The notes below the pieces were generated by a model that saw only the letters and a list, made by a program, of their open reading frames with translations, was not told the DNA's origin and made no database searches. This document shows positions 434 to 11,625 of a stretch of DNA of 12,359 bases, in pieces. The stretch is from contig BBVC01000017.1 of the NCBI GenBank assembly GCA_001192655.1, positions 1-12,359 on the forward strand. The letters run 5' to 3'. This DNA comes from Caedimonas varicaedens (lineage in GTDB: Bacteria > Pseudomonadota > Alphaproteobacteria > Caedimonadales > Caedimonadaceae). How positions within the stretch are numbered: the first letter of the stretch is position 1; every line of letters starts with the position of its first letter. Made by a program: the position numbers and the translations under genes.

Positions 434-1843
434 CTAGGTTTGGAGCATTCTTTTTAATAAATCCAGGTCTTCTGTTAGAGAAGCATCTTTCTCCTTAAGC
501 TCTTCGACTTTTTTGACAGCATGCATAACAGTCGTATGATCACGTCCTCCGAATTTACGCCCAATCTCAGGCAAAGACATGGATGTCAACTGCTTGGCAA
601 GAAACATTGCAATTTGACGGGGACGCGCAACCGAACGCAAGCGACGCGGTGAGTGCATGTCTGCCAGCTTTACATTAAAATGCTCGGCGACTTTCTTTTG
701 AATTTCATCCACCGAAATACGCCGATCATTCGCACGCAATAAATCCCTGAGGACATCTGTTGCCGATTCAATCGTAATCTCTCGCCCAACAAGCATGGAA
801 TGCGCAACAATACGATTAAGAGCGCCTTCCAGTTCCCGTACATTTGACGTGATTTTATGCGCCAGAAACTCAAGAACCTTCAGTGGAACTTCTCGCCCTA
901 TTTGTTCGGTTTTGGACTGTAAAATACCCAGGCGTAACTCATAGGTCATAGGATGAATATCAGCCACAAGCCCCCAGCCCAGACGAGAACGCATGCGCTC
1001 TTCCAAACCTTCCAGATCGGAAGGAGATTTATCAGCTGAAATAATGACTTGATGATTCTGATCAACCAGCGCATTAAAAGTATGAAAGAATTCTTCTTGC
1101 GTTGATTCCTTGCCGCTAATGAACTGGAAATCATCAATCATCAAAACATCAACAGAACGAAACTGCTCTTTAAAAGCCATTGTATCCTTAAAACGTAAGG
1201 CTTTTACAAAAAGATACATAAATTTTTCAGCCGAAAGATAAATAACGCGCCGTTGCGGATAGGATTTACAAATATGCCATGCAATGGCATGCATAAGATG
1301 GGTTTTACCTAATCCTACCCCTCCGTACAAGAAAAGCGGATTAAAGGTCACTTTATCTGCTTCGGCGACCCGACGTGCAGCAGCATGAGCCAACTCATTG
1401 GATTTTCCCACAACAAAAGCCTCAAAGGTATAACGAGGTTCAAGACGAGAGCCAATAACTTGAATATTTCGATCTTCGGGTTCAGCTTGATCTTTGATTC
1501 TTGCTTCTGCACTTTCAACAGGGGAAGTTCCATTAAATGTTGAATTGGGTGTAACAATTAAATCAAGCGCCAAAATACGAGCATCAAAACGTTGAAGAAT
1601 TTCGAGCATTTTTTGAGAAAAATGTGACTGGATCCAGTCACGCCTAAAACGTGTGGGGGCTATAACAATCAGTCGACCAGAAATAAATTCGCCAAAGGTT
1701 AGGGGTGAAAGCCAACTTTTAAAGGTAGCATCACCAAACTCTTGTGAAAAAAGAGAGCGTGCATTTTCCCAGCATGCCGCCATCACTGACCCCAGTTCTG
1801 GATTCGATTCTATTTGAAGCGAGGTCACAGGCGACACTGACAT
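434..1843 (-). CDS. dnaA: Chromosomal replication initiator protein DnaA
   Basis: 469-aa ORF. It has Walker A GGVGLGKTHL, Walker B VLMIDDFQF, the AAA+ sensor/box VII region RSRLGWGLV, and the C-terminal DnaA signature IAMFLAKQLTSMSLPEIGRKFGGRDHTTVMHAVKKV. Its N-terminus has a typical domain-I pattern (FKSWLSPL...LIVIAPTRFRRDWIQSHF). Confidence 0.97.
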   Translation of the reverse strand: MSVSPVTSLQIESNPELGSVMAACWENARSLFSQEFGDATFKSWLSPLTFGEFISGRLIVIAPTRFRRDWIQSHFSQKMLEILQRFDARILALDLIVTPNSTFNGTSPVESAEARIKDQAEPEDRNIQVIGSRLEPRYTFEAFVVGKSNELAHAAARRVAEADKVTFNPLFLYGGVGLGKTHLMHAIAWHICKSYPQRRVIYLSAEKFMYLFVKALRFKDTMAFKEQFRSVDVLMIDDFQFISGKESTQEEFFHTFNALVDQNHQVIISADKSPSDLEGLEERMRSRLGWGLVADIHPMTYELRLGILQSKTEQIGREVPLKVLEFLAHKITSNVRELEGALNRIVAHSMLVGREITIESATDVLRDLLRANDRRISVDEIQKKVAEHFNVKLADMHSPRRLRSVARPRQIAMFLAKQLTSMSLPEIGRKFGGRDHTTVMHAVKKVEELKEKDASLTEDLDLLKRMLQT

Positions 1844-1982: not shown

Positions 1983-2243
1983 TTACAAAGCATTTATACG
2001 CGAAGCAAGTCGAGAAACTTTGCGCGATGCTGTATTTAAATGCAACACACCCTTACTCACACCGCGCATGATTTCAGGTTGAGCAATTTGCAAAGCCTTC
2101 TGGGCAACAGACTTGTCACCTGTACGAATAGCCTCTTCCACCTTCCGCACAAAAGTACGAACACGCATGATACGGGAATGATTGCGCGCTGTCTTCAGTA
2201 CTGATTGGCGCACACGTTTTTTAGCTGACTCAATATTTGCCAT
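1983..2243 (-). CDS. rpsT: 30S ribosomal protein S20
   Basis: 86-aa basic protein starting [14 protein letters not shown], the canonical S20 N-terminus. An AGGA Shine-Dalgarno sits just upstream on the minus strand. rpsT directly upstream of dnaA in the same orientation is a common alphaproteobacterial arrangement. Confidence 0.95.
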
Positions 2244-2460: not shown

Positions 2461-2572
2461 ACTGCCGAAGACTTTTTCAAAAGAATTGTTTTATTCCAGT
2501 GCTTTGGGAACTTTTCCTACATCATAATTTCGCCATAATCTTACGCAAAGAGACCTTGTGGAGGAATATCGT

Positions 2573-3754
2573 ATGAATCGTCAGAAACTCACCAATACCA
2601 TGATTGAAAAAGCTCAACCCAACGGCAAGGTTTATGCCTTGGCCGACTCTGTGGTTCCCGGTCTTCTGGTGTTTATTAATCCGTGTGGCACGAAAACGTT
2701 TTGTCTTCGTTTACAGAACTTCAGAAAAAAATTGGGCGTCTATCCTTATGACAAGATTCAGTCTGCCCGACAAAAAGGCATTGAATGCCATTCAGAACAT
2801 TTACAGGAGATCCGCATGAAAAATCAGCGCAAAGACGCGAACCTGACCCTATCCGTCCATAAACTCGTCGAGGAATACCTTGAGTTTAAGAAAAGCTCTT
2901 TGTCGGAGAAAACGTGGAAAGAATATGCCTATACTTGGAACAAGTGCGGACGAGATAAATTAGGTGACCTCTTTATCCCCGACCTCACCGATGCCCATGT
3001 GAACCAACTCTTTATTCAGCTCAAGGATACGTACTCTCATACGGAAACCCTGAAAATTATTCTTCTGGCAGCTTTTAAATATGGCAAACAGAAAGGCTAT
3101 CCTGTGGCTGTTTTGGATGGAGAAAGCTGGATACGTTATAAGCGACCTGTGAAGGAGCGGTATTTAACGTCAGGAGAACTCAGCATCTTTTCTGAGCTTA
3201 TGAAAGAACGCAAGGCGCGTTCTGTGACCTATGGCAAACTCCCTCAGCAAATTATCGCCATGGAGCTCCTTTTATATACAGGGTGTCGATGTTCCGAAAT
3301 TCTGGAGCTTAAATGGTCGGATGTTTTTTTCAAGGAAGGGTATATCCAGCTTTGGAAGACCAAGACGCGCAAGGGACGATTGGTTCCTTTATCGGATAAA
3401 ATTCGATCTTTGCTGACGGAAGCCCGTCAGTTTGAAAGTGGAGATTATGTTTTTACCTCGGTGACGGATGCCGACAAGCCCATCTCTTATAATACCTTTC
3501 AGACGGTTTGGTACAACTTGATGAAAGAGGGAAACTTTAACCAAGAGGGCGTTGAGCGCCTTCGGATTCACTCTCTGCGTCATACCTTTATTACGGCGGC
3601 TAATCGAAGCGGCATTTCCCCCTGGACACTGAAAGCGCTTGTGGGTCATTCCAACGGCTCTTGTGTGACGGGCGTTTACATCCACCATAATTTACAAGAA
3701 TTGACTCAAGCTCAGACGTCTATTATTGACGCCTTGCAGAAAGGGCAATATTGA
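2573..3754 (+). CDS. int: Tyrosine recombinase / phage-type (P4-like) integrase
   Basis: The ORF is open from 2558 (GTG), but ATG 2573 follows GGAGGA (2560-2565) at 7-nt spacing. The N-terminal arm-binding-type region is KLTNTMIEKAQPNGKVYALADSVVPGLLVFINPCGTKTFCLR. Catalytic motifs are YTGCRCSEILELKW (box I Arg), HSLRHTF (H-x-x-R), LVGHS, and TGVYIHH (Tyr nucleophile). Confidence 0.92.
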   Translation: MNRQKLTNTMIEKAQPNGKVYALADSVVPGLLVFINPCGTKTFCLRLQNFRKKLGVYPYDKIQSARQKGIECHSEHLQEIRMKNQRKDANLTLSVHKLVEEYLEFKKSSLSEKTWKEYAYTWNKCGRDKLGDLFIPDLTDAHVNQLFIQLKDTYSHTETLKIILLAAFKYGKQKGYPVAVLDGESWIRYKRPVKERYLTSGELSIFSELMKERKARSVTYGKLPQQIIAMELLLYTGCRCSEILELKWSDVFFKEGYIQLWKTKTRKGRLVPLSDKIRSLLTEARQFESGDYVFTSVTDADKPISYNTFQTVWYNLMKEGNFNQEGVERLRIHSLRHTFITAANRSGISPWTLKALVGHSNGSCVTGVYIHHNLQELTQAQTSIIDALQKGQY

Positions 3755-3766
3755 GATGCCCTTTTT
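3742..3766 (+). terminator. Weak candidate intrinsic terminator overlapping the integrase stop codon
   Basis: AGGGCA (3742-3747), a 9-nt loop, TGCCCT (3757-3762), with T5 at 3762-3766. The stem is short, so confidence is low. Confidence 0.35.
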
Positions 3767-3826
3767 CAACCTTTCTGTATCGCTCTTTTTTACCGGAAGA
3801 CAGGATAATCTCTCTGCGTTTGCTCT

Positions 3827-3852
3827 CTGCTTTTTCCCAGGGCAAAAAGCAG
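3827..3852. promoter_or_regulatory. Palindrome/hairpin CTGCTTTTT-N8-AAAAAGCAG, 44 bp upstream of the rep-like gene; candidate operator
   Basis: Perfect 9-bp inverted arms at 3827-3835 and 3844-3852. The spacer CCCAGGGC is itself partly self-complementary. No T-tract follows on either strand, so it is unlikely to be a terminator. Confidence 0.35.
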
Positions 3853-3895
3853 GACGAAAGAGGGACGTGTTGTCTTCACAGAAAGGCAGGGTGTC

Positions 3896-6070
3896 ATGAC
3901 CTTTGTGCCGCGTTCTCTCAAGCGCGCTGTTTTACGGGAAGAGTTTGTGGCTCTGACGGGGGATGCTTTTCAGGCGATTATTCTCAACCAGTTTATCTAC
4001 TGGGTGCAGAAAGTTTCTGACTTTGATGATTTTATTCGGGAAGAGCAAGCGCGGAATCCTGATTGCAACGTCTCTTTACGGCATGGGTGGATTTATAAAA
4101 AAGCCCAGGAGATGATCGACGAGACCATGCTGCAGATGTCCGATATTACCATGAGACGAATGATTAAGGCTCTTGTGGAAAAGGGCTGGATTGAGGAACG
4201 TCCTAATCCTGACAATCGATGGAACAAGGTTCTTCAGTATCGTCCTGATCTGAAGAAGATCCAGCATGATCTTTATTCTCTGGGATATGCCTTACCCGGA
4301 TTCCCTCTTTTACAGCCTGTTTCGCCCTCTGAAGCCTCGAACCTTCAAAATGAAGTCTCGAACCTTCAAAATGAAGCTTCGAACCTTCAAAAATCGAGTT
4401 TCATATTAAAGGATTCAGAGACTACAGCAGAGATTACAGCAGAGAGGAACGCTGACACGCCCGCGGATGTTTCAAAAGCCATGATCCATACCTGGAATCG
4501 TGTTTTGTGTCCCCCTGTTTTGGTTCAGCTGACAACGGAAAGGTCTCAGCGCCTTCAGGCTTTGTTGCAGGAGCATTTTGAGAACAAGCTAGACCTGTGG
4601 TCATCGTTTTGCCAGGAAATCACCCGCAGTTCGTTTCTCATGGGCAAGGGTCAGCGGGGATGGCGTGCGGGACTGGACTGGGTTTTAATCCCTGCTAATT
4701 TTCAAAAAATACGGGAAGGCAATTACCGGGATGCAGATCCTTCTCCTGACGGCTCAGGAGAAGAAAAGCTGTCATCGGAAGAACTCAAGCTCAAGGTGGA
4801 TGCCCATCTTGAAAGCCTTGAGGATCCTCTGTCCCGACAATTTTGTCGTGGGCTTTTGCGCCATCTTCGCGGGGACAAGTTTTTATTCTGGTTTGGACAG
4901 GCATCTTGGGGCGGATGGGATTGTGGAGAGCTTGTGTTGTCTTTTCCGTCAAAAGCCGCCCGAGATTACGTGGAGCGTCATTTTAGCTCGGAGATCGGTG
5001 TTGCCGCACGCTCTGTGTGTCCTGACCTCAAAAGCCTGAGTCTCACCGTTCAGCAAACAATCCAGCACTCTCAACTCCCTGTATCTCCTGCTTTTTCCTT
5101 GCCCTCACCCGCCACGGGAGATCAAAACCAAGGAAAAAATATTTCTTCCTCTCACGGCTTGAGAGCCGTTGAGGTTCCTCACAGCCAGCTGCCAAGTCTC
5201 ACCACAGAGGGGGAATTTGATCTGTCGCAGCAGAGCTTGGCGGAATCTGACCTCCAAGAGATAAATCCTCAGGGAAACGGTGAAGATCGAGAGACTCAAT
5301 TCTCCAGATCAACATCATCCCCTTTGAAGGGATCCCATACGTCTCCCCCAAACACGCAAGCTCTGGAATTTGCAGAAGATTGCTTGCCCGTGAGCGATAA
5401 GGCCTCTCAACCCTTCTTGTCTGCTTTGCAGACCGGAGAGCATGGCAAAGAAAGGCTTGTGAGAGATGATGCTTTGCTTGGGAGAATTTTCTCATGGGAT
5501 GATGGTACCTCTCCTGTCCAAGAGGGGGTGCGTTCTCCTGCTCCCACCACTTTACCCTGGACTTCTGCGGAAGATCAGGCAGACTCGTTGTTGACGCCCT
5601 GCTTTGTCTCGGGAGAGCAACCTGTTTCCCCGACACATGCTGCTCCCTTGTCTTTACACCGTCATGCTGTTCCGTGCGCAGACTCTCTTGGAGAGAATGC
5701 GTCAGGAAATGCCCGACAAACATGCCCCACGACATCCTCTGTCCTCTCTCAAGAATCCCGTCATCTTTGTTCGCCAAGGAGGATGCCTGTGATCCGTGAC
5801 GAATCCCGTCACGTCTCTTCCTTATCAGGGAAGATAAAACCTTCTGCCAGGGAAGAAGGCCTGCCTTTTGTGCAGGACTCTTACGTTGACAGAAACGGGC
5901 GTGACCCATTTTTAAGGGTGTCGTCCGAAGAGCGCACTCATTCCGTTCATTCGTCACCTTTATCCCTCCCTTCTGTCCAAGAGAATCCCTGGAAACGGCA
6001 TGTGACGGGATTACTCGCCGCTTGCTTGCCTTCTTCTGCCAACCCTCTTATGGAAAGGAATCTGTCATGA
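3896..6070 (+). CDS. Multi-domain replication-initiator-like protein: N-terminal winged-helix-like region, heptad repeats, a phage/plasmid replication-organizer-like middle segment, a DnaA-domain-I-like segment, and a long disordered Ser/Pro-rich tail
   Basis: An uninterrupted 724-codon ORF, too long to arise by chance. aa 1-135 contain ...MSDITMRRMIKALVEKGWIEER (wHTH-like). aa 190-278 end in FLMGKGQRGWRAGLDWVLIPANFQKIREGNY. aa 310-386 (GDKFLFWF...GELVLSFPSKAARDYVERHFSSEI...LSLTV) align by eye with the N-terminus of the host DnaA in this window (GDATFKSWL...GRLIVIAPTRFRRDWIQSHFSQKM...LDLIV). The product name is inferred. Confidence 0.75.
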   Translation: MTFVPRSLKRAVLREEFVALTGDAFQAIILNQFIYWVQKVSDFDDFIREEQARNPDCNVSLRHGWIYKKAQEMIDETMLQMSDITMRRMIKALVEKGWIEERPNPDNRWNKVLQYRPDLKKIQHDLYSLGYALPGFPLLQPVSPSEASNLQNEVSNLQNEASNLQKSSFILKDSETTAEITAERNADTPADVSKAMIHTWNRVLCPPVLVQLTTERSQRLQALLQEHFENKLDLWSSFCQEITRSSFLMGKGQRGWRAGLDWVLIPANFQKIREGNYRDADPSPDGSGEEKLSSEELKLKVDAHLESLEDPLSRQFCRGLLRHLRGDKFLFWFGQASWGGWDCGELVLSFPSKAARDYVERHFSSEIGVAARSVCPDLKSLSLTVQQTIQHSQLPVSPAFSLPSPATGDQNQGKNISSSHGLRAVEVPHSQLPSLTTEGEFDLSQQSLAESDLQEINPQGNGEDRETQFSRSTSSPLKGSHTSPPNTQALEFAEDCLPVSDKASQPFLSALQTGEHGKERLVRDDALLGRIFSWDDGTSPVQEGVRSPAPTTLPWTSAEDQADSLLTPCFVSGEQPVSPTHAAPLSLHRHAVPCADSLGENASGNARQTCPTTSSVLSQESRHLCSPRRMPVIRDESRHVSSLSGKIKPSAREEGLPFVQDSYVDRNGRDPFLRVSSEERTHSVHSSPLSLPSVQENPWKRHVTGLLAACLPSSANPLMERNLS
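4331..4393. repeat. Three tandem 21-bp direct repeats (GAAGyyTCGAACCTTCAAAAw) inside the rep-like CDS; iteron-like
   Basis: Units lie at 4331-4351, 4352-4372 and 4373-4393. The units differ at positions 5-6 (cc/tc/ct), and the final base of unit 3 is a rather than t. They encode (E)ASNLQN / (E)VSNLQN / (E)ASNLQK. The 21-bp period equals two helical turns. A locally AT-rich stretch follows (aaaaatcgagtttcatattaaagg). Confidence 0.9.
4423..4445. repeat. Second short tandem repeat, 2 x 11 bp (TACAGCAGAGA) with a 12-bp period, 30 bp downstream of the 21-bp repeats
   Basis: tacagcagaga is at 4423-4433 and again at 4435-4445. It encodes TAEITAER. Confidence 0.8.
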
Positions 6071-6468
6071 GTCTCAACCGCATTTGTCTTTTAGGCCATG
6101 TGGGAAAAAATCCCCAATTTTATCAAACATCCATCGGTGACGCTTACGCCCGTTTTTCGTTAGCAACGCAGGAATCCTGGAAGGATGCCCAGGGAAACAA
6201 GCAAACCCGCACCCAGTGGCATTCTGTGGCGGTGTTTTCTCAAGGTCTCGTGGAGATTGCCCGACAATACCTGAACAAGGGCGCTTATGTCTTTCTGGAG
6301 GGGATGCTCCATTATCGTCAAGTCCTCACCGATGACGGACGGGAATATCCCGTTGCAGAAATCCTGCTTAAAAATCCACGCAGTGTTTTACGTATTCTCC
6401 AGCCCGGCAAGACAGTTGCATCTGTCCCCGAGGAGCATTCCACAGAAGAGGCCTGTCATGATGCTTAA
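6067..6468 (+). CDS. ssb: Single-stranded DNA-binding protein (short form, no canonical acidic C-terminal tip)
   Basis: ATG 6067 overlaps the stop of the upstream gene (ATGA). The N-terminus MSLNRICLLGHVGKNPQFYQTSIGDAYARFSLATQESWKD...TQWHSVAVF...ARQYLNKGAYVFLEGML is a typical SSB OB-fold pattern. The protein is 133 aa and ends ...EEHSTEEACHDA. Confidence 0.85.
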   Translation: MSLNRICLLGHVGKNPQFYQTSIGDAYARFSLATQESWKDAQGNKQTRTQWHSVAVFSQGLVEIARQYLNKGAYVFLEGMLHYRQVLTDDGREYPVAEILLKNPRSVLRILQPGKTVASVPEEHSTEEACHDA

Positions 6469-6714: not shown

Positions 6715-7890
6715 ATGACCATGTCTGATTCCCTGCCTCAACGGGGTGGTTCTGCAATGCCTTTCTCTCCGGGGAAACCCTTTTCCCTGATTTCTCTTTT
6801 TTCCGGTGTGGGGGGCATGGACAGGGGATTTGAAAAAGCAGGCTTTAACATCCTCTGGGCGAACGACCGGGATCAAACTGTGATACCCTCGTATACGTCT
6901 TTCTTTCCCTATACCGTTTTTGACAGCCGTTCCCTCCGGGATATTTCTGGAACAGAACTTCCCAAAGCAGCTGGCGTTATTGGCGGGCCACCCTGTCAAT
7001 CATGGAGTGCGGGGGGTGCGCGCAGGGGAATTCATGACCCTCAAGGTCAGCTTTTTGAGGACTACCTCCGCGTCCTTCATCACGTTCAACCCCTGTTCTT
7101 TGTGGCAGAAAACGTCCCAGGACTGATTCAGGGTAACAACAGAGCGTTCTTTCACCAGATGCTTCAGAGGATGGAACAGGAAGGGTACCTGGTGACTTGG
7201 AAAGTCGTGAATGCTCATGATTATGGCGTTCCCCAAGACAGGAGGCGGGTCTTCATCGTGGGGTATCATCACTCCCTGAATAAAGGATTTGTCTTTCCTC
7301 CTCCCCTGTCGTGCAGACCCACTTTAAGAAACGCTATTTTTGACCTCCGACGACTGAAGATCGGCGCTTCTCGTAAAGTTGCTAACCATGATCTTTTTGT
7401 CTCCGGTTATTCCCCTCGTTTCATGAGCCGAAACCGCGTGCGTCCGTGGCACAAACCCTCCTTTACCATTCTGGCGTCTGCGCGCTTTATCCCCCTTCAT
7501 CCCCAATCCCCTGTGATGGTTTCAGGCAAAGAGGGAAAGACGAAGCAATTTGCCCCAGGTCATGAACATCTCTATCGCCGTTTAACAGTACGGGAATGCG
7601 CCCGCATCCAGACCTTTCCCGATGATTGTCATTTTATCTACACCCATGTCAGACACGGCTACCGCATGGTGGGGAATGCCGTTCCTGTAGAACTGGCTTT
7701 TCATCTGGCCAGAGCGATTCGGACAGATCTGGAACAATATCAACACACGGAACAAAAAGAGGCCGTTTGCCAAACGCAGCACCCCTTCACCACAGAGGCG
7801 CGTCCTGATGTTTTACCGGAACGCTTCGAGAACTCTGGCATCATCTCCACCAACACTTCTTCTCAAACAACCCAAAGAGAGGACGCATGA
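6715..7890 (+). CDS. DNA (cytosine-5)-methyltransferase, M.HaeIII/M.NgoPII-like
   Basis: All C5-MTase motifs are present: I LFSGVGGMDRGF, IV GGPPCQSWS, VI FVAENVPGL, VIII QDRRRVFIVG, IX RRLTVRECARIQTFPD, and X GNAVPVELA. The variable region FMSRNRVRPWHKPSFTILASARFIPLHPQSPVM closely resembles my recollection of M.HaeIII. Confidence 0.93.
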   Translation: MTMSDSLPQRGGSAMPFSPGKPFSLISLFSGVGGMDRGFEKAGFNILWANDRDQTVIPSYTSFFPYTVFDSRSLRDISGTELPKAAGVIGGPPCQSWSAGGARRGIHDPQGQLFEDYLRVLHHVQPLFFVAENVPGLIQGNNRAFFHQMLQRMEQEGYLVTWKVVNAHDYGVPQDRRRVFIVGYHHSLNKGFVFPPPLSCRPTLRNAIFDLRRLKIGASRKVANHDLFVSGYSPRFMSRNRVRPWHKPSFTILASARFIPLHPQSPVMVSGKEGKTKQFAPGHEHLYRRLTVRECARIQTFPDDCHFIYTHVRHGYRMVGNAVPVELAFHLARAIRTDLEQYQHTEQKEAVCQTQHPFTTEARPDVLPERFENSGIISTNTSSQTTQREDA

Positions 7891-9023
7891 TGCCCCTGAA
7901 TCCTCACAGTCCTTTCACGTTCATCGATCTGTTTGCCGGTATCGGGGGCATGCGCCAAGGGTTTGAAGAAAAAGGCGGACGCTGTGTGTTGGCTTGCGAG
8001 AAAGATCCTCACGCCCAAACCACCTATGATGCCAATTATGCCTGTGAGGATCATCCTGTCGTGGGTGATATCACGCTTCTCTCTCCCCAGGAGATTCCGC
8101 CTCACGATCTTTTGTTGGCAGGGTTTCCCTGTCAGCCCTTTTCTCAGGCGGGACTACCTTCCCGTCAACGTCTGGGCAAACACACCGGTTTTGCCTGTCC
8201 TTCTCAGGGGTCGCTGTTTTTTGAGATCGCGCGTGTTCTCCAGGTTCATCGTCCCCGAGCCTTTTTACTGGAGAATGTGAAGAATCTTCTCACCCATGAT
8301 CAGGGACGCACGTGGGGTCTTCTTCTGCAAACCTTGTGCGCTGATCTGGGGTACTCTGTCCAAACCCGTGTTCTCAATGCCCGCTTTTGGGTTCCCCAAC
8401 ACAGAGAGCGGGTCTTTATCGTCGGATTTGCCCAGGAAACAGAGTTTGATTTTTCAGCCCTGACCATTCCCTCGATGGATCCTCTGCCGTGCCTTCAGGA
8501 TATTCTTCATCGTGAAGATGGCTCCCAGGAAGCTGAAGCGCCCTATACCCAGGGCAAGAAAGCCAAGGTTTCAGAACGGTATACCCTGTCTGACCGGTTA
8601 TGGTCTTCCCTTCAGCGTCATGCCCGCAAACACCGAGAGAAAGGTCATGGCTTTGGGTATCACTTGACCCCTCGAGAGGGGGTTGCCCACACGCTGTCTG
8701 CCCGTTACGGCAAAGACGGCTCTGAAATCCTCATCCCTCAACCGGGCAAAAACCCCCGACGCCTGACACCGCGGGAATGTGCGCGCCTTATGGGATTTGA
8801 TGCGCCCAAAGAGAGCCGGTTTCGCATTCCCGTTTCAGATACTCAAGCCTACCGGCAGTTTGGCAATGCCGTGGTGGCGCCTGTGGCGGGAGCCATTGCC
8901 TCTCATATGGCGCCATGGATTCAGAGGGGGAAGGCAAACCATGAGCCTTTCTCATCACCGCAAGAAGAAAAACCTTTGTCTTGTCCCGCGTCTTTCTCTT
9001 CTTCTCAGGAGTATTTTTCATGA
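7887..9023 (+). CDS. dcm: DNA (cytosine-5)-methyltransferase, Dcm/M.EcoRII-like
   Basis: The start overlaps the upstream stop (ATGA). Motifs are I LFAGIGGMRQGF, IV GFPCQPFSQAG, VI LLENVKNL, VIII PQHRERVFIVGF, RRLTPRECARLMGF, and X QFGNAVVAPV. The segments HTGFACPSQGSLFF, KHREKGHGFGYHL, TLSARYGKDGSEILI and FRIPVSDTQAYRQFGN match my recollection of E. coli Dcm almost block for block. Confidence 0.93.
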   Translation: MMPLNPHSPFTFIDLFAGIGGMRQGFEEKGGRCVLACEKDPHAQTTYDANYACEDHPVVGDITLLSPQEIPPHDLLLAGFPCQPFSQAGLPSRQRLGKHTGFACPSQGSLFFEIARVLQVHRPRAFLLENVKNLLTHDQGRTWGLLLQTLCADLGYSVQTRVLNARFWVPQHRERVFIVGFAQETEFDFSALTIPSMDPLPCLQDILHREDGSQEAEAPYTQGKKAKVSERYTLSDRLWSSLQRHARKHREKGHGFGYHLTPREGVAHTLSARYGKDGSEILIPQPGKNPRRLTPRECARLMGFDAPKESRFRIPVSDTQAYRQFGNAVVAPVAGAIASHMAPWIQRGKANHEPFSSPQEEKPLSCPASFSSSQEYFS

Positions 9024-9325
9024 ATTCGACGTTTCCCTCCCTGACCTTTCTTCTGTTTCGTACGTGTGTGTCAGAACCGCAAAGAGTTATTTCTTCCTGC
9101 GTCATTCTGGTGACGGCTGTGGCGGCCGGTGTCGTTTATGCAGGCGTTCCCGTTCTCGTGGGCTTTTTGCTCTCTCTGACGGTGCTGCTTGTGATCGTGA
9201 ACATCCTTTCTTCTTCTGTGTCAACCCTGACAGAACAGCAGGACAAGGTTCTCAAGTCTGTTTTGCTCCCTCTGCTTTATCTTTCCCCCTTTCTTGTTTC
9301 AAGGAGAATGCGTGATGAACCGTAA
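9020..9325 (+). CDS. Small hypothetical membrane protein (about 101 aa, predicted 2-TM hairpin) directly preceding traL
   Basis: ATG 9020 overlaps the M2 stop (ATGA) and follows AGGAG (9007-9011) at 8-nt spacing. It has a continuous hydrophobic core, VISSCVILVTAVAAGVVYAGVPVLVGFLLSLTVLLVIVNIL. No motif was recognised. Confidence 0.6.
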   Translation: MNSTFPSLTFLLFRTCVSEPQRVISSCVILVTAVAAGVVYAGVPVLVGFLLSLTVLLVIVNILSSSVSTLTEQQDKVLKSVLLPLLYLSPFLVSRRMRDEP

Positions 9326-9614
9326 AGAACACCGTATTTATCAATATCTCTCGGAACCCCTGAGATTGATGGGACTCACCGTGGACGAACTTGTTCTGGG
9401 CGGCGGGGGTCTGCTGGGCTGTTTGTTTGCGGACAGCTTTCTGGTCAAGACGGGGTGCGGGATTGTAGGCATCGGGGGCGTCTTTGCCCTCAAGAAGTTT
9501 AAAAAGAGCGTCTCGGGATTTTCTCTGGGTTCTTTTCTTCATTGGTATGGGGGCATTATGCCCGGACGACCCTTTGCCTGGCCACCTTCTCACAAAAGGT
9601 TCTGGCTGTCATGA
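9315..9614 (+). CDS. traL: F-type conjugative transfer system protein TraL
   Basis: ATG 9315 follows AAGGAGA (9301-9307). The 99-aa protein matches the F TraL pattern: YQYLSEPLRLMGLTVDELV (compare YRFPETL...GLPLDEL), KKFKKSVSGFSLGSFLHWY (compare KKLKKGRGSSWLRDLIYWY), and the C-terminal P.S.KRFW. Confidence 0.85.
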   Translation: MNRKEHRIYQYLSEPLRLMGLTVDELVLGGGGLLGCLFADSFLVKTGCGIVGIGGVFALKKFKKSVSGFSLGSFLHWYGGIMPGRPFAWPPSHKRFWLS

Positions 9615-10171
9615 ATCTGAAACACTTTTCCCATACCCTGTCACGGATGATCAAACAGCGCAACTTTTCAGCCTTGGTCACCGTTGTGTTGCTGGCCAGC
9701 AATCTCTTGCTCTGCGTCAAGGTGGTGAATCAAGACGATCACTGGGTCATTATCCCCTGGCCGGAAACAGACCGCCGTCTTCCCTTGAGTCGTCACAATC
9801 TCACCGATCGGTATCTCATTGATTGGGCAGATGGCTTGACCAGTCGTCTGTTGACCATGAATCCCCAAACAGCGGATCAGCGTCTTTATGAGTTTCTGCT
9901 CATCACCGAAAGCTCGGGTACCATCGAGGCCAAACTCAAAAAACAGGTCGAAACTCTGAAGAGCGAGAACATCAGCACGGCTTTTTATCCCCGAGAGTAT
10001 GCCGTGAAGAAAGACGCCCGTCAGGTCTGGGTCACAGGGGATTTCCATACCTTCTTCGGCAAGGACAAGAATCCGGTCATTCAAAAGAGAACAGTGGTCT
10101 TGACCTATAGCACCAATGGCAAGGGATGCATTCTCGTGAAACACTTTTTTTATGAGGGAGAACATGACTAA
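9611..10171 (+). CDS. traE: F-type conjugative transfer system protein TraE
   Basis: ATG 9611 overlaps the traL stop (ATGA). It is 186 aa with an N-terminal TM segment (FSALVTVVLLASNLLLCV). The C-terminal block ISTAFYPREYAVKKDARQVWVTGDFHTFFGKDKNP parallels F TraE (SAFFQTS..V....GRVEIRGVLKTWIGDSKP). Size and gene order fit. Confidence 0.85.
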   Translation: MNLKHFSHTLSRMIKQRNFSALVTVVLLASNLLLCVKVVNQDDHWVIIPWPETDRRLPLSRHNLTDRYLIDWADGLTSRLLTMNPQTADQRLYEFLLITESSGTIEAKLKKQVETLKSENISTAFYPREYAVKKDARQVWVTGDFHTFFGKDKNPVIQKRTVVLTYSTNGKGCILVKHFFYEGEHD

Positions 10172-11114
10172 AACAGATATTTTTTTACAGATTCTCTTCC
10201 CCCGGAGACGCAAGCTTGAGGGAAGGGTGAGGAACGACCGCGCTTCTGTAGGGTGGATAAGAAATCTCCCCCATGGTCGCAAGCGTCAACGATTTTCCCT
10301 GGGAAAGTTCAGAACCGCAGGAAGAAACATGGCTCTTGTGATGCTCATGGGATTGATGCCCGTTTATGGGGCTGTTCCCCTGAATGATACGGCGGTGATG
10401 GACGTCAACATCTCCCGCAAGGGATTGACCCGTCTGTCGGTCAAAGGGGACGGGATTCAGGATATTTTTGTCTATCCCGTGATATCGGGAGAGGTGGCTC
10501 TGCAGGATGCGGTTCAGCTTCACAAGAGCGGTCATGTCTTTATGGCGCCCGAGGGGATCAAGGAGCCTTTTTATCTCACCGTGATCACCCAAAAAGGACA
10601 CGTTCAGGATTTAAAAATCTCTCCTATGACCCAACAGAGCGTTCCCCTGATTCTGACTCTTCCTGAATCTCCCCAAGACCCTCATGACGCTCTTCAGCAA
10701 GAACGGAACGTTCTGGAGAAATATCTTCTGTCTGCCCTTCAGGGCATTCCGCCCAGAGGATTTACACAACTCTCTCTCTCGGACGCCTCATCTCGCCAGA
10801 TCGGGAATCTTGCCGTGACGCCCCTCCATCTCTACGGGTCAGACCGATATCTCCTGAGTGTGTGTGATCTGGAGAACACAGGGGAGCAAGACCTGACCCT
10901 GATGGCCGAGAGTTTTCTGTCGTCTTCTGATTTGGCGGTGGTGTTCGAGCGTCCCGTTCTGACGCCTCAGAGCAAAATCCGTATGGTGATTGTCAGCCCT
11001 CGTCACGAGGGTCTACCTGTTCTTTCAGACGACAACCCTGTTCTGACCGAACCTTTATCACCCTCACCGTCACCATCATCCTCACCCCCAACAATAAAAG
11101 GAGACCCTGAATGA
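10164..11114 (+). CDS. traK: F-type conjugative transfer system protein TraK (secretin-like/VirB9-analogue); start uncertain
   Basis: The frame is open from 10152. ATG 10164 follows GAGGGAG and overlaps the traE end. ATG 10329 follows AGGAAG and would give 261 aa beginning at the signal-like MALVMLMGLMPVYGA. The body (VNISRKGLTRLSVKGDGIQDIFVYP ... DLAVVFERPVLTPQSKIRMVIV) fits the TraK pattern and its position after traE. Confidence 0.75.
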   Translation: MTKTDIFLQILFPRRRKLEGRVRNDRASVGWIRNLPHGRKRQRFSLGKFRTAGRNMALVMLMGLMPVYGAVPLNDTAVMDVNISRKGLTRLSVKGDGIQDIFVYPVISGEVALQDAVQLHKSGHVFMAPEGIKEPFYLTVITQKGHVQDLKISPMTQQSVPLILTLPESPQDPHDALQQERNVLEKYLLSALQGIPPRGFTQLSLSDASSRQIGNLAVTPLHLYGSDRYLLSVCDLENTGEQDLTLMAESFLSSSDLAVVFERPVLTPQSKIRMVIVSPRHEGLPVLSDDNPVLTEPLSPSPSPSSSPPTIKGDPE

Positions 11115-11207
11115 TCTTTGCTCTTGTTCATTTTGACCGCACAGAATCTTTATCACCCCCCACACCAAAAGGAGACCCTGAATGATGTTTTCTCTTGTTC
11201 ATTTTGA
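11096..11207. repeat. Two 41-bp direct repeats (39/41 identical, 71-bp period), each carrying AAGGAG, 7 nt, then ATG and the first 9 codons of an ORF
   Basis: Copy 1 (11096-11136) is aaaaggagaccctgaatgatctttgctcttgttcattttga. Copy 2 (11167-11207) is aaaaggagaccctgaatgatgttttctcttgttcattttga. The flanking motif cTTTATCAcc recurs at about 11053, 11147 and 11218. Confidence 0.9.
11111..11185 (+). CDS. Candidate 24-aa mini-ORF (MIFALVHFDRTESLSPPTPKGDPE) created by the junction duplication
   Basis: There is a perfect SD (AAGGAG 11098-11103) 7 nt before ATG 11111. The ATG overlaps the traK stop (ATGA), and its own stop overlaps the next ATG (ATGA). Its N-terminus is paralogous to that of the next ORF, and its C-terminus (KGDPE) matches the TraK C-terminus. 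Translation is unproven. Confidence 0.35.
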   Translation: MIFALVHFDRTESLSPPTPKGDPE

Positions 11208-11625
11208 GAGAAAAAAACCTTTATCAACGTCATCTGCAACACACAAAGAAGACGTCCTGATGCTCTCTGCTTTTACCCCTGATAGAAAGGAATCCATGAT
11301 GAAACAGCAACTTTCCCCCACCCTTCTTCCCTTGTTCAGAAAACACAAACTGTCCATGATCCTGGGCGCTTATGCTCTGGCGACCTTGACCAGTTTCTGG
11401 CTCTCGGGCGAGGCCTTTGCCACCAAGATTGAGGATCAGCTGGAGGCGGTTCACAAACTCACCACCGGCGGGGTTGTTAAAACAGGCATGGGAGTGGCCA
11501 CCATTGGGGGAGCCGTGGTGGCGGTGATGAAGCAATCCCCCGGTCTGGCCGCAGTGGTGGCAGGCATCGGGATTGCCTTTTCCTATTACATGGGCTGGCT
11601 TAATAAATATGACTGGTCAAAATAA
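11182..11625 (+). CDS. Putative conjugative propilin (TraA/VirB2-like architecture) with a long leader
   Basis: A perfect SD (AAGGAG 11169-11174) sits 7 nt before ATG 11182; an alternative start is ATG 11296. There is a signal-like segment KHKLSMILGAYALATLTSFWLSGEAFA followed by TK. The predicted mature part is about 67 aa, with a hydrophilic head, two Gly/Ala/Val-rich hydrophobic helices (GMGVATIGGAVVAVM and GLAAVVAGIGIAFSYYMGWL) and a basic loop between them. This matches F-pilin in size and layout. The call rests on architecture, not sequence identity. Confidence 0.6.
   Translation: MMFSLVHFERKKPLSTSSATHKEDVLMLSAFTPDRKESMMKQQLSPTLLPLFRKHKLSMILGAYALATLTSFWLSGEAFATKIEDQLEAVHKLTTGGVVKTGMGVATIGGAVVAVMKQSPGLAAVVAGIGIAFSYYMGWLNKYDWSK

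Follow-up and report, generated by a model that had tools for sequence, protein, structure and literature searches.

The architecture in which a replication origin lies inside the gene of its own initiator is known. In the record of phage lambda, the iterons occupy positions 39034-39118, inside gene O (38686-39585). The gp38 protein of phage SPP1 binds direct repeats within its own gene (gene 38/oriL), beside an A/T-rich unwinding element (PMC6316719). In the RepA_N initiators pSK41 Rep and pLS32 RepN, an N-terminal winged helix binds four Rep boxes in the central part of rep; the linker encoded there can be dispensed with, and host specificity resides in the C-terminal domain (PMC5703833, PMC4490491). 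Among integrated elements, SGI1 carries int, Rep, iterons and A/T-rich regions and replicates after excision (PMC7433901), and the Rickettsiales amplified genetic elements (RAGE) of Orientia carry DnaA_N-domain genes (PMC10732058). The locus described here is a rep-like initiator gene at positions 3896-6070 (plus strand) of a 12,359-nt stretch of Caedimonas varicaedens contig BBVC01000017.1, hereafter the window. The gene, characterised from its open reading frame (ORF) and translation, PHROG matches, an AlphaFold2 model and homologues, encodes 724 residues and lies in an integrative conjugative element (ICE). Judging from sequence, nt about 4316-4495 probably constitute a vegetative replication origin (oriV) within the gene of its own initiator. 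In comparison with the known architecture, what is new is an unannotated and sizeable family, an unusual domain fusion, a module that crosses phyla, and a conjugative element as the carrier.

An initial annotation of the stretch, made from the letters alone, had proposed three near-identical 21-bp direct repeats with a conserved 14-nt core. Tandem Repeats Finder reports a 21-bp unit in 3.0 copies at 4330-4392 (92% matches, score 112), and the period-21 self-match from 4329 reaches 39 of 42 positions, compared with a maximum of 26 in 300 first-order Markov simulations of the window. The core is equally clear: the 14-mer TCGAACCTTCAAAA has exactly three occurrences, starting at 4337, 4358 and 4379, and allowing 3 mismatches adds no other in the window. 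What that description missed is an 18-bp near-palindrome enclosed in each 21-bp unit, centred on TCGA and with consensus TGAAGnnTCGAAnCTTCA. The first such iteron lies at 4330-4347 (TGAAGCC-TCGA-ACCTTCA, five of seven arm pairs complementary), the second, 21 bp further on, at 4351-4368 (TGAAGTC-TCGA-ACCTTCA, again 5/7), and the third at 4372-4389 (TGAAGCT-TCGA-ACCTTCA, 6/7). The third is the best conserved copy among orthologues, its TCG AAC CTT CAA being almost invariant in the alignment.

The iterons directly abut the least stable 40-bp duplex of the 2.2-kb gene. This duplex, at 4385-4424, is the locally AT-rich stretch previously pointed out and a candidate unwinding region: it has 70% A+T, its nearest-neighbour free energy is the minimum of the gene (-45.6 kcal/mol, against a gene mean of -55.0 +/- 3.1), and its instability stands at the 98th percentile of the window. 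Within it, the third codon positions of TTC ATA TTA AAG GAT are conserved in the orthologue alignment. A second repeat is present as stated, yet its period is 12 bp instead of two copies of 11 bp. Tandem Repeats Finder places a 12-bp unit in 2.5 copies at 4416-4445, and the block as a whole (4415-4450) consists of TCAGAGACTACA (4415-4426), GCAGAGATTACA (4427-4438) and a degenerate GCAGAGAGGAAC (4439-4450). In the AlphaFold2 model, built with 53 homologues and having a mean predicted local distance difference test score (pLDDT) of 80, residues 141-187 (nt 4316-4456) are disordered (pLDDT about 30) between confident domains, which agrees with the placement of the repeats in an interdomain linker. 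The linker peptide is a heptad, xSNLQNE.

The DNA of 50 related loci, labelled L001 etc., was taken for comparison, and the window was compared with seven orthologues by counting how often the same codon is used where the residue is unchanged. For codons 146-184 (nt 4331-4447), the codon is the same in 148 of the 163 same-residue comparisons (91%), against 415 of 754 (55%) in the N-terminal domain and 54% in the middle domain; the contrast between linker and N-terminal domain gives a Fisher P = 5e-20, over comparisons that are phylogenetically non-independent. Amino-acid identity, on the other hand, is 0.62 in the linker codons and 0.82 in the N-terminal domain. Successive 20-codon blocks in 4316-4495 keep the same codon at rates of 0.82, 0.91 and 1.00, compared with 0.37-0.65 elsewhere in the gene. 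These values bear out the earlier suggestion of constraint at the DNA level beyond what the peptide requires. The repeats do lie within 4331-4445, as first delimited, yet the zone of synonymous-site conservation revealed by the codon comparison, which is the proposed origin module, is wider (about 4316-4495). Where the initial annotation had looked to homologues for scrambled codons or lost repeats, the codons are kept, and the motif recurs in other frames and in non-coding DNA.

This recurrence was followed in 17 distant lineages whose N-terminal-domain identity is under 70%, and whose linkers carry 2-8 repeats of about 21-22 bp. The Ser codon TCG accounts for 36 of the 131 Ser codons in the linker zone and for 38 of 452 in the rest of these genes (P = 1e-7). 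TCGAA occurs 32 times. With the peptide fixed and synonymous codons drawn anew according to the usage of each gene, 7.7 +/- 2.6 occurrences are expected, and 32 was not attained in any of 5000 draws. The reading frame itself is not kept: L010 has TCGAAGnTAAA every 22-23 bp in frames 0, 1 and 0, L005 has CATTCGAATGT in frames 1 and 0, and the first 12-mer of L001 encodes Asn-Arg-Asp-Tyr (NRDY), not Thr-Glu-Thr-Thr (TETT). In L053, a 155-residue gene that encodes only the N-terminal domain stops at 1152; behind it, non-coding DNA with stop codons in each of the three frames holds about 4.5 copies of a 21-bp repeat, and CAGAGATTACAACAAAGACTA comes next. In L030, the family gene has a repeat-free linker, and a 12-mer block together with other repeats occupies intergenic DNA some 600 bp upstream of that gene. 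Among 184 family proteins, 95 have a repeat within 90 residues after the N-terminal domain, compared with one for shuffled segments, and the period is 7 or 14 residues in 92 of the 95.

Given the codon, other-frame, non-coding and period evidence, an explanation in terms of the peptide only is rejected. Such an explanation would see in the array a low-complexity heptad linker that gains and loses units by replication slippage and has no role as DNA. Iteron copy number does vary from 2 to 3 among close relatives, and the segment is predicted to be disordered, as slippage would lead one to expect. Yet, compared with the folded domains, synonymous sites show stronger conservation and residues weaker, the excess of TCG codons and TCGAA spans phyla, the motif is also present in other frames and outside coding DNA, and the dyad symmetry goes beyond the demands of the peptide. 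Hence, slippage is a most improbable account of the array.

The dyad symmetry was also compared among lineages. The TCGA centre of the iterons is invariant from Bacillus plasmids to Alphaproteobacteria. The iterons of Bacillus plasmids read TGAAGTA-TCGA-AACTTCA, other lineages have perfect palindromes with other arms (TGAAGGT/ACCTTCA, TGACGCT/AGCGTCA and TCAACAT/ATGTTGA), and near-perfect arms are found elsewhere (TGCACCT/AGGTGGA and TTTTCCT/ACGAAAA). All seven arm pairs are complementary in L005, L036/L037 and L041. Overall, 165 of 336 arm pairs are complementary, whereas codon resampling gives 138 +/- 6, and none of its 1000 rounds was as high as the observed count. Such a pattern, a fixed centre flanked by arms that covary, is what a dimeric binding protein would be expected to produce. 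The arm type tracks the putative recognition helix of the N-terminal domain (MRRIIK, MRKYLK or MRRYLxF), a correspondence that is confounded with phylogeny.

Covariation of the arms between lineages would be expected of stems as well. The 18-bp palindromes might thus act as hairpins in single-stranded nucleic acid, either as a single-strand origin or priming signal on the strand that is transferred, or as mRNA stem-loops that pace translation from one domain to the next. This agrees with the RNA folding of 4316-4495, which is modestly better than that of shuffles (z = -2.15), and with the position of ssb next to rep; ICEBs1 offers a precedent in its known single-strand origin (PMC4595007). Nevertheless, the invariant part of the unit is its 4-nt centre, which would be the loop, and where the arms of the window iterons mismatch, the pairs are C/C or C/A and none is a G-T wobble. 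In addition, the direct-repeat phasing is 21-22 bp in every lineage, the units accompany the winged-helix domain also where they are not translated, they are present on non-mobilizable plasmids, and no Rfam family matches the window. A role as hairpins is therefore considered improbable.

The 12-mers are conserved across the family: ACAGAGAYTACW is found in two to five copies downstream of iterons in Bacillus, Savagea, Sarcina, Thermosynechococcus and alphaproteobacterial metagenome-assembled genomes (MAGs). GAG and GAA stand at 16:2 in these units and at 173:367 elsewhere in the genes (P = 1.5e-6), in counts that leave out the anchor unit, whose motif excluded GAA. A double 12-mer pattern was found 38 times in all fetched loci, and 37 of these lie at most 450 nt downstream of the N-terminal domain on the same strand, a zone that makes up 2.6% of the searched sequence. 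In the window, the alignments also show a G+C-rich cluster, ACGCCCGCGG, after the 12-mers (4456-4465), which is CGCGCG in relatives. A cluster of this CGCGCG type follows the 12-mers in alphaproteobacterial and Thermosynechococcus genes (L003, L005, L009-L012, L014, L039), where it stands in differing codon phases and encodes RARE, TRED or ACE peptides.

The rep-like protein has three recognisable parts. The N-terminal domain, presumed to be the iteron binder, comprises residues 1-140 (3896-4315, plus strand) according to AlphaFold2, Foldseek and PHROG. Its residues 9-130 are modelled as a confident winged helix (pLDDT about 90), with helices and a beta-wing, and its Foldseek matches are MarR/MecI winged helices. 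No Pfam family matches this domain above threshold, a weak MarR match falling below it, and a profile search of PDB sequences likewise gave sub-threshold MarR matches only. It matches phrog_22444, of unknown function, at 4e-23 over residues 6-153, and Bacillus plasmid proteins with the same repeats have N-termini that share 44-51% identity with it.

Beyond the linker, a helical middle domain (residues about 189-280; 4460-4735, plus strand) is related by PHROG and tblastn to phage O-like, DnaD-like loader and replisome organiser proteins. The PHROG matches are phrog_345, 'replication initiation O-like' (4.5e-18, residues 68-282), phrog_19658, 'replication initiation protein' (5.7e-18), and phrog_10469, 'DnaD-like helicase loader' (2e-17, residues 174-284). 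The tblastn matches include a Pseudomonas phage 'primosomal protein I / replication protein O' and replisome organisers of Clostridium and Ruminococcus phages. The third part is an alpha/beta module resembling DnaA domain I (residues about 294-385; 4775-5050, plus strand). The isolated segment matches Pfam DnaA_N with 27.8 bits, for a gathering score of 24.6, and Foldseek aligns it with the DnaA domain I structures 4tps (template modelling score 0.74-0.76) and 2e0g. A Ser/Pro-rich tail of about 340 residues (5051-6067) has no domain match. Orthologues vary in length (417-673 residues), the tail included, yet their final ~30 residues are conserved (NPWK...CLPSS...MERNLS). An antisense ORF of 252 residues at 5199-5957 is probably spurious.

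The locus thus has three direct repeats in the initiator's own gene, between a DNA-binding and a recruiting domain; these repeats are dyad-symmetric and selected as DNA, and an easily melted A/T-rich region lies beside them. Given linker-coding repeats and an easily melted stretch that are both conserved as DNA, an origin of the lambda style inside the gene is the reading proposed. Dimers of the N-terminal winged helix would bind the three iterons, which, being 21 bp or about two helical turns apart, would place the dimers on one face of the DNA. The resulting nucleoprotein complex would strain and open the adjacent A/T-rich stretch and the 12-mer block. The O-like/DnaD-like middle domain and the module resembling DnaA domain I may then recruit the host helicase or its loader, and SSB from the coupled downstream gene would coat the opened strands. 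After excision, the ICE would replicate as a plasmid in the theta mode, and would thus have the autonomous origin that the initial annotation attributed to it; the peptide encoded by the origin would merely be a disordered tether between domains. Binding, melting, helicase recruitment and replication from 4316-4495 are steps that we infer.

In comparison with lambda, the likeness is one of architecture, as had been proposed. The lambda origin and the proposed one lie in the part of the initiator gene that encodes the linker between an N-terminal DNA-binding and a C-terminal loader-recruiting domain, and both have 18-bp dyad-symmetric iterons (four in lambda) at a spacing of about 20-24 bp, with an A/T-rich stretch after them. 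Lambda O shares with the window protein its matches to phrog_345, phrog_9773 and phrog_5810, which points to a remote and mosaic relationship. Direct homology, however, is not detected between the two proteins (hhalign probability 0.6%), and the window protein has no match to Pfam Phage_rep_O. The window has three iterons, of unrelated sequence, and its initiator gene is further distinguished from lambda O by the 12-mer block, the DnaA-domain-I-like module and the tail of 340 residues. It also lies in a conjugative element, not in a phage, and the gene after it is ssb, a lambda-P-like partner being absent.

The replisome organisers of SPP1 (gp38) and of the lactococcal type are comparable in that the middle domain matches phage proteins annotated 'replisome organizer' and 'DnaD-like helicase loader', gp38 itself being likened by architecture. 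In contrast to SPP1, the element in the window lacks loader or helicase genes next to the initiator, which includes a DnaA_N-like module and belongs to an F-type conjugative element. The RepA_N initiators share the tripartite layout, with origin repeats central in rep and a C-terminal domain that appears host-specific (cf. PMC5703833); in the window family, too, the C-terminal parts differ between Bacillus and alphaproteobacterial members. Membership in RepA_N was nevertheless rejected, since PF06970 is absent from the window protein and eight homologues at E values up to 1-10 and hhalign to pSK41 Rep gives 0.1%; no RepA_N or DnaD N-terminal-domain structure is among the Foldseek top 50. As to the classical iteron plasmids (Rep_3: F, pSC101, R6K, RK2), Pfam gave no Rep_3 match.

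The main rival to an origin in the linker-coding region accepts that the iterons are genuine winged-helix binding sites and places them in regulation or in processing linked to conjugation, with replication starting elsewhere, for example by rolling circle from the origin of transfer (oriT). The sites could serve autoregulation, control of copy number or incompatibility, an intragenic transcriptional roadblock, or a complex for conjugative processing or establishment. Replication from oriT with the relaxase is described for other ICEs, namely ICEBs1 (PMC3542172, PMC4595007). Several observations favour this rival and weigh against the intragenic origin. In Alphaproteobacteria, rep heads a conserved rep-ssb-tra block (rep, then directly ssb, then tra genes, in at least 17 loci), so the gene could act in the processing of conjugative DNA or help to establish the element in a recipient. 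All four plasmids of Candidatus (Ca.) Paracaedimonas acanthamoebae (L047-L050, CP008937-CP008940) have a full-length homologue in the same local gene order, and on three of these four co-resident plasmids the iterons are identical (TCGAACGTCAAAAAT / TCGAATGTTAAAAAA). Such sharing is hard to reconcile with classical incompatibility through iterons, and it suggests that the module may be a cassette linked to transfer and repeated from plasmid to plasmid, instead of the main replicon of each. Also to be set against the intragenic origin are the resemblance of the N-terminal domain to a generic MarR-type winged helix by Foldseek, the non-independence of the orthologue comparisons mentioned above, and the lack of promoter-like sites in a scan of 3600-4800. 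The single 1-mismatch match to a DnaA box, at 4174-4182, lies inside a conserved coding motif and is not above chance.

A further point for a regulatory role is an extra paralogue found in some loci. In several alphaproteobacterial loci, a short gene of 128-161 residues lies directly upstream of the full-length gene (L004 1513-1974, L008 6001-6447, L009 4497-4949, L012 1581-1964, L015 1630-2013 and L029 6001-6483) and encodes only a diverged winged-helix N-terminal domain, with 36-41% identity. Its product could be a competitor or a regulator for the same sites. On the other hand, the sites are always coupled to an A/T-rich stretch and to 12-mers, which are typical of unwinding elements; the same protein has loader-like and DnaA-domain-I-like parts, for which a regulator has no need; and homologues occur on plasmids typed as non-mobilizable. 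Binding sites without an origin are hence regarded as rather unlikely, and an intragenic origin as the reading to be preferred.

The family to which this candidate origin belongs is large. A word index gave 56 homologues of the window protein, and a phmmer search of 1.84 billion cluster representatives with the N-terminal domain gave 1394 proteins at E <= 1e-3, of which 1107 are at E <= 1e-10. Members are found on 136-155-kb plasmids of the Bacillus subtilis group, where they are annotated 'hypothetical protein', and on plasmids of Alicyclobacillus, Vagococcus, Peribacillus, Priestia and B. cereus-group bacteria, some homologue-bearing plasmids being those typed non-mobilizable. A Bacillus plasmid homologue lies at NZ_CP061871 90371-91840. 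In Pfam, NCBIfam and the source annotations examined, the family has no replication function, and databases give it the labels 'MarR family regulator' and 'hypothetical protein'. In its C-terminal part, the Bacillus protein is similar to a Planococcus 'replication initiator protein A', so the protein is modular. As a candidate for a Bacillus iteron replicon, pBMB165 of B. thuringiensis was also considered and set aside as irrelevant, its replicon being of the pAMbeta1 type.

A broader reading is put forward tentatively. About 1,400 clusters (50% identity) may form a cross-phylum family of initiators with an intragenic origin, to which the alphaproteobacterial branch has added a DnaA-domain-I fusion and in which excised elements would be true plasmids. 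The origin module would consist of TCGA-centred palindromic iterons, an A/T-rich spacer and ACAGAGATTACA 12-mers, and would extend from Bacillus megaplasmids to alphaproteobacterial elements and a cyanobacterial MAG contig. The module fused in the alphaproteobacterial branch may recruit the replicative helicase directly, in place of DnaA. One relative with 50% identity (P0008; L039 626-5674 and L040) has a plasmid-like context, one of its contigs being linked to ParA. The order in L039 is parA, a gene for a second DnaA_N-domain protein (402 residues), a LysR-type regulator, the rep-like gene and tra genes, and the linker of P0008 in L039 has lost the TCGA repeats and kept the 12-mers.

If correct, the proposal would make excised elements true plasmids, which might help explain amplification in intracellular bacteria. 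It provides a concrete oriV/Rep candidate for F-type conjugative elements of intracellular Alphaproteobacteria (Holosporales-like hosts, RAGE-like elements), whose persistence and amplification are poorly understood and for which genetic tools such as shuttle vectors are scarce. It would also define a sizeable replicon family, including the probable replicons of the 136-155-kb Bacillus subtilis-group plasmids from fermented foods. Finally, the linker would be a clean natural example of dual coding, in which an array of putative protein-binding DNA dictates a disordered peptide of heptads, with built-in controls in the motif out of frame and in non-coding DNA.

The element that carries the gene begins on its left with a tyrosine integrase (2558-3754, plus strand; Pfam Phage_integrase 1.1e-29, Arm-DNA-bind_3). 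The plus-strand order continues with the rep-like ORF, ssb, two C5 cytosine methyltransferases, traL/traE/traK and a pilin-like gene. The ssb gene (6067-6468, plus strand; Pfam SSB 1.9e-24, TIGR00621) overlaps the rep stop with its start codon (ATGA, 6067-6070), and the sequence indicates that it is translationally coupled to the upstream rep. The genes traL, traE and traK (9294-11114, plus strand), identified by Pfam and NCBIfam, belong to an F-type type IV secretion system, that is, the conjugation module, and the pilin-like gene (11182-11625, plus strand) comes right after traK. The window ends within the tra region.

Close relatives of the 724-residue protein (72-76% identity) share the int-rep-ssb-methylase-tra order, with the integrase directly upstream of the orthologous rep-like gene at several chromosomal sites. 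The chromosomal neighbours of these blocks differ, being recR, a short-chain dehydrogenase (adh_short) gene or a peptidase M15 gene (L035, L036, L044). Given that the same block, with an integrase and an F-type type IV secretion system, is found at different chromosomal sites, it is concluded to be an ICE, of the F-type, RAGE-like class. In the window, the element is inserted beside the chromosomal dnaA (434-1843, minus strand) and rpsT (1983-2243, minus strand), the latter to the left of the integrase, with the insertion falling at 2243-2558. No tRNA gene is found in the 12,359 nt, and relatives lie beside recR, peptidase M15 or dehydrogenase genes; the integrase therefore seems to use several non-tRNA targets.

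Two described elements are comparable in this setting. SGI1 likewise has an iteron-type Rep/oriV in an integrated element (PMC7433901), yet its oriV is intergenic, downstream of rep, its Rep is of the RepA_C type, and it is mobilisable, not self-conjugative. The RAGE elements likewise combine an integrase, F-type tra genes and a gene with a DnaA N-terminal domain in intracellular Alphaproteobacteria (PMC10732058). In RAGE, however, the DnaA_N gene stands at the far end; here it directly follows int. By DnaA, the window host is nearer to Nucleicultrix and Paracaedimonas than to Rickettsiales: the window DnaA shares 72% identity with that of Ca. Nucleicultrix amoebiphila and 71% with that of Ca. 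Paracaedimonas acanthamoebae, which places the host, an alphaproteobacterium, close to these symbionts of amoebae. The literature gave no report of iterons within the DnaA_N gene of RAGE.

Some further features of the window were observed. The 141-bp gap between integrase and rep contains a 13-bp direct repeat, CTCTCTGCGTTTG, in 1.9 copies at 3810-3834 (Tandem Repeats Finder), which could be a candidate regulatory site; no sigma-70-like promoter is predicted in this gap, and the one terminator-like site in 3600-4800 is within the range of shuffles. The two C5 cytosine DNA methyltransferase genes (391 and 378 residues) are adjacent and overlapping at 6715-9023, between ssb and tra. The pair is retained in close relatives, and a Pfam domain search of the window made no restriction enzyme gene evident beside it. 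At 11082-11226, Tandem Repeats Finder reports a 71-bp tandem duplication (2.0 copies, 85% matches) that copies the ribosome-binding site and first codons of the pilin-like gene, so that two near-identical gene starts stand in tandem after traK.

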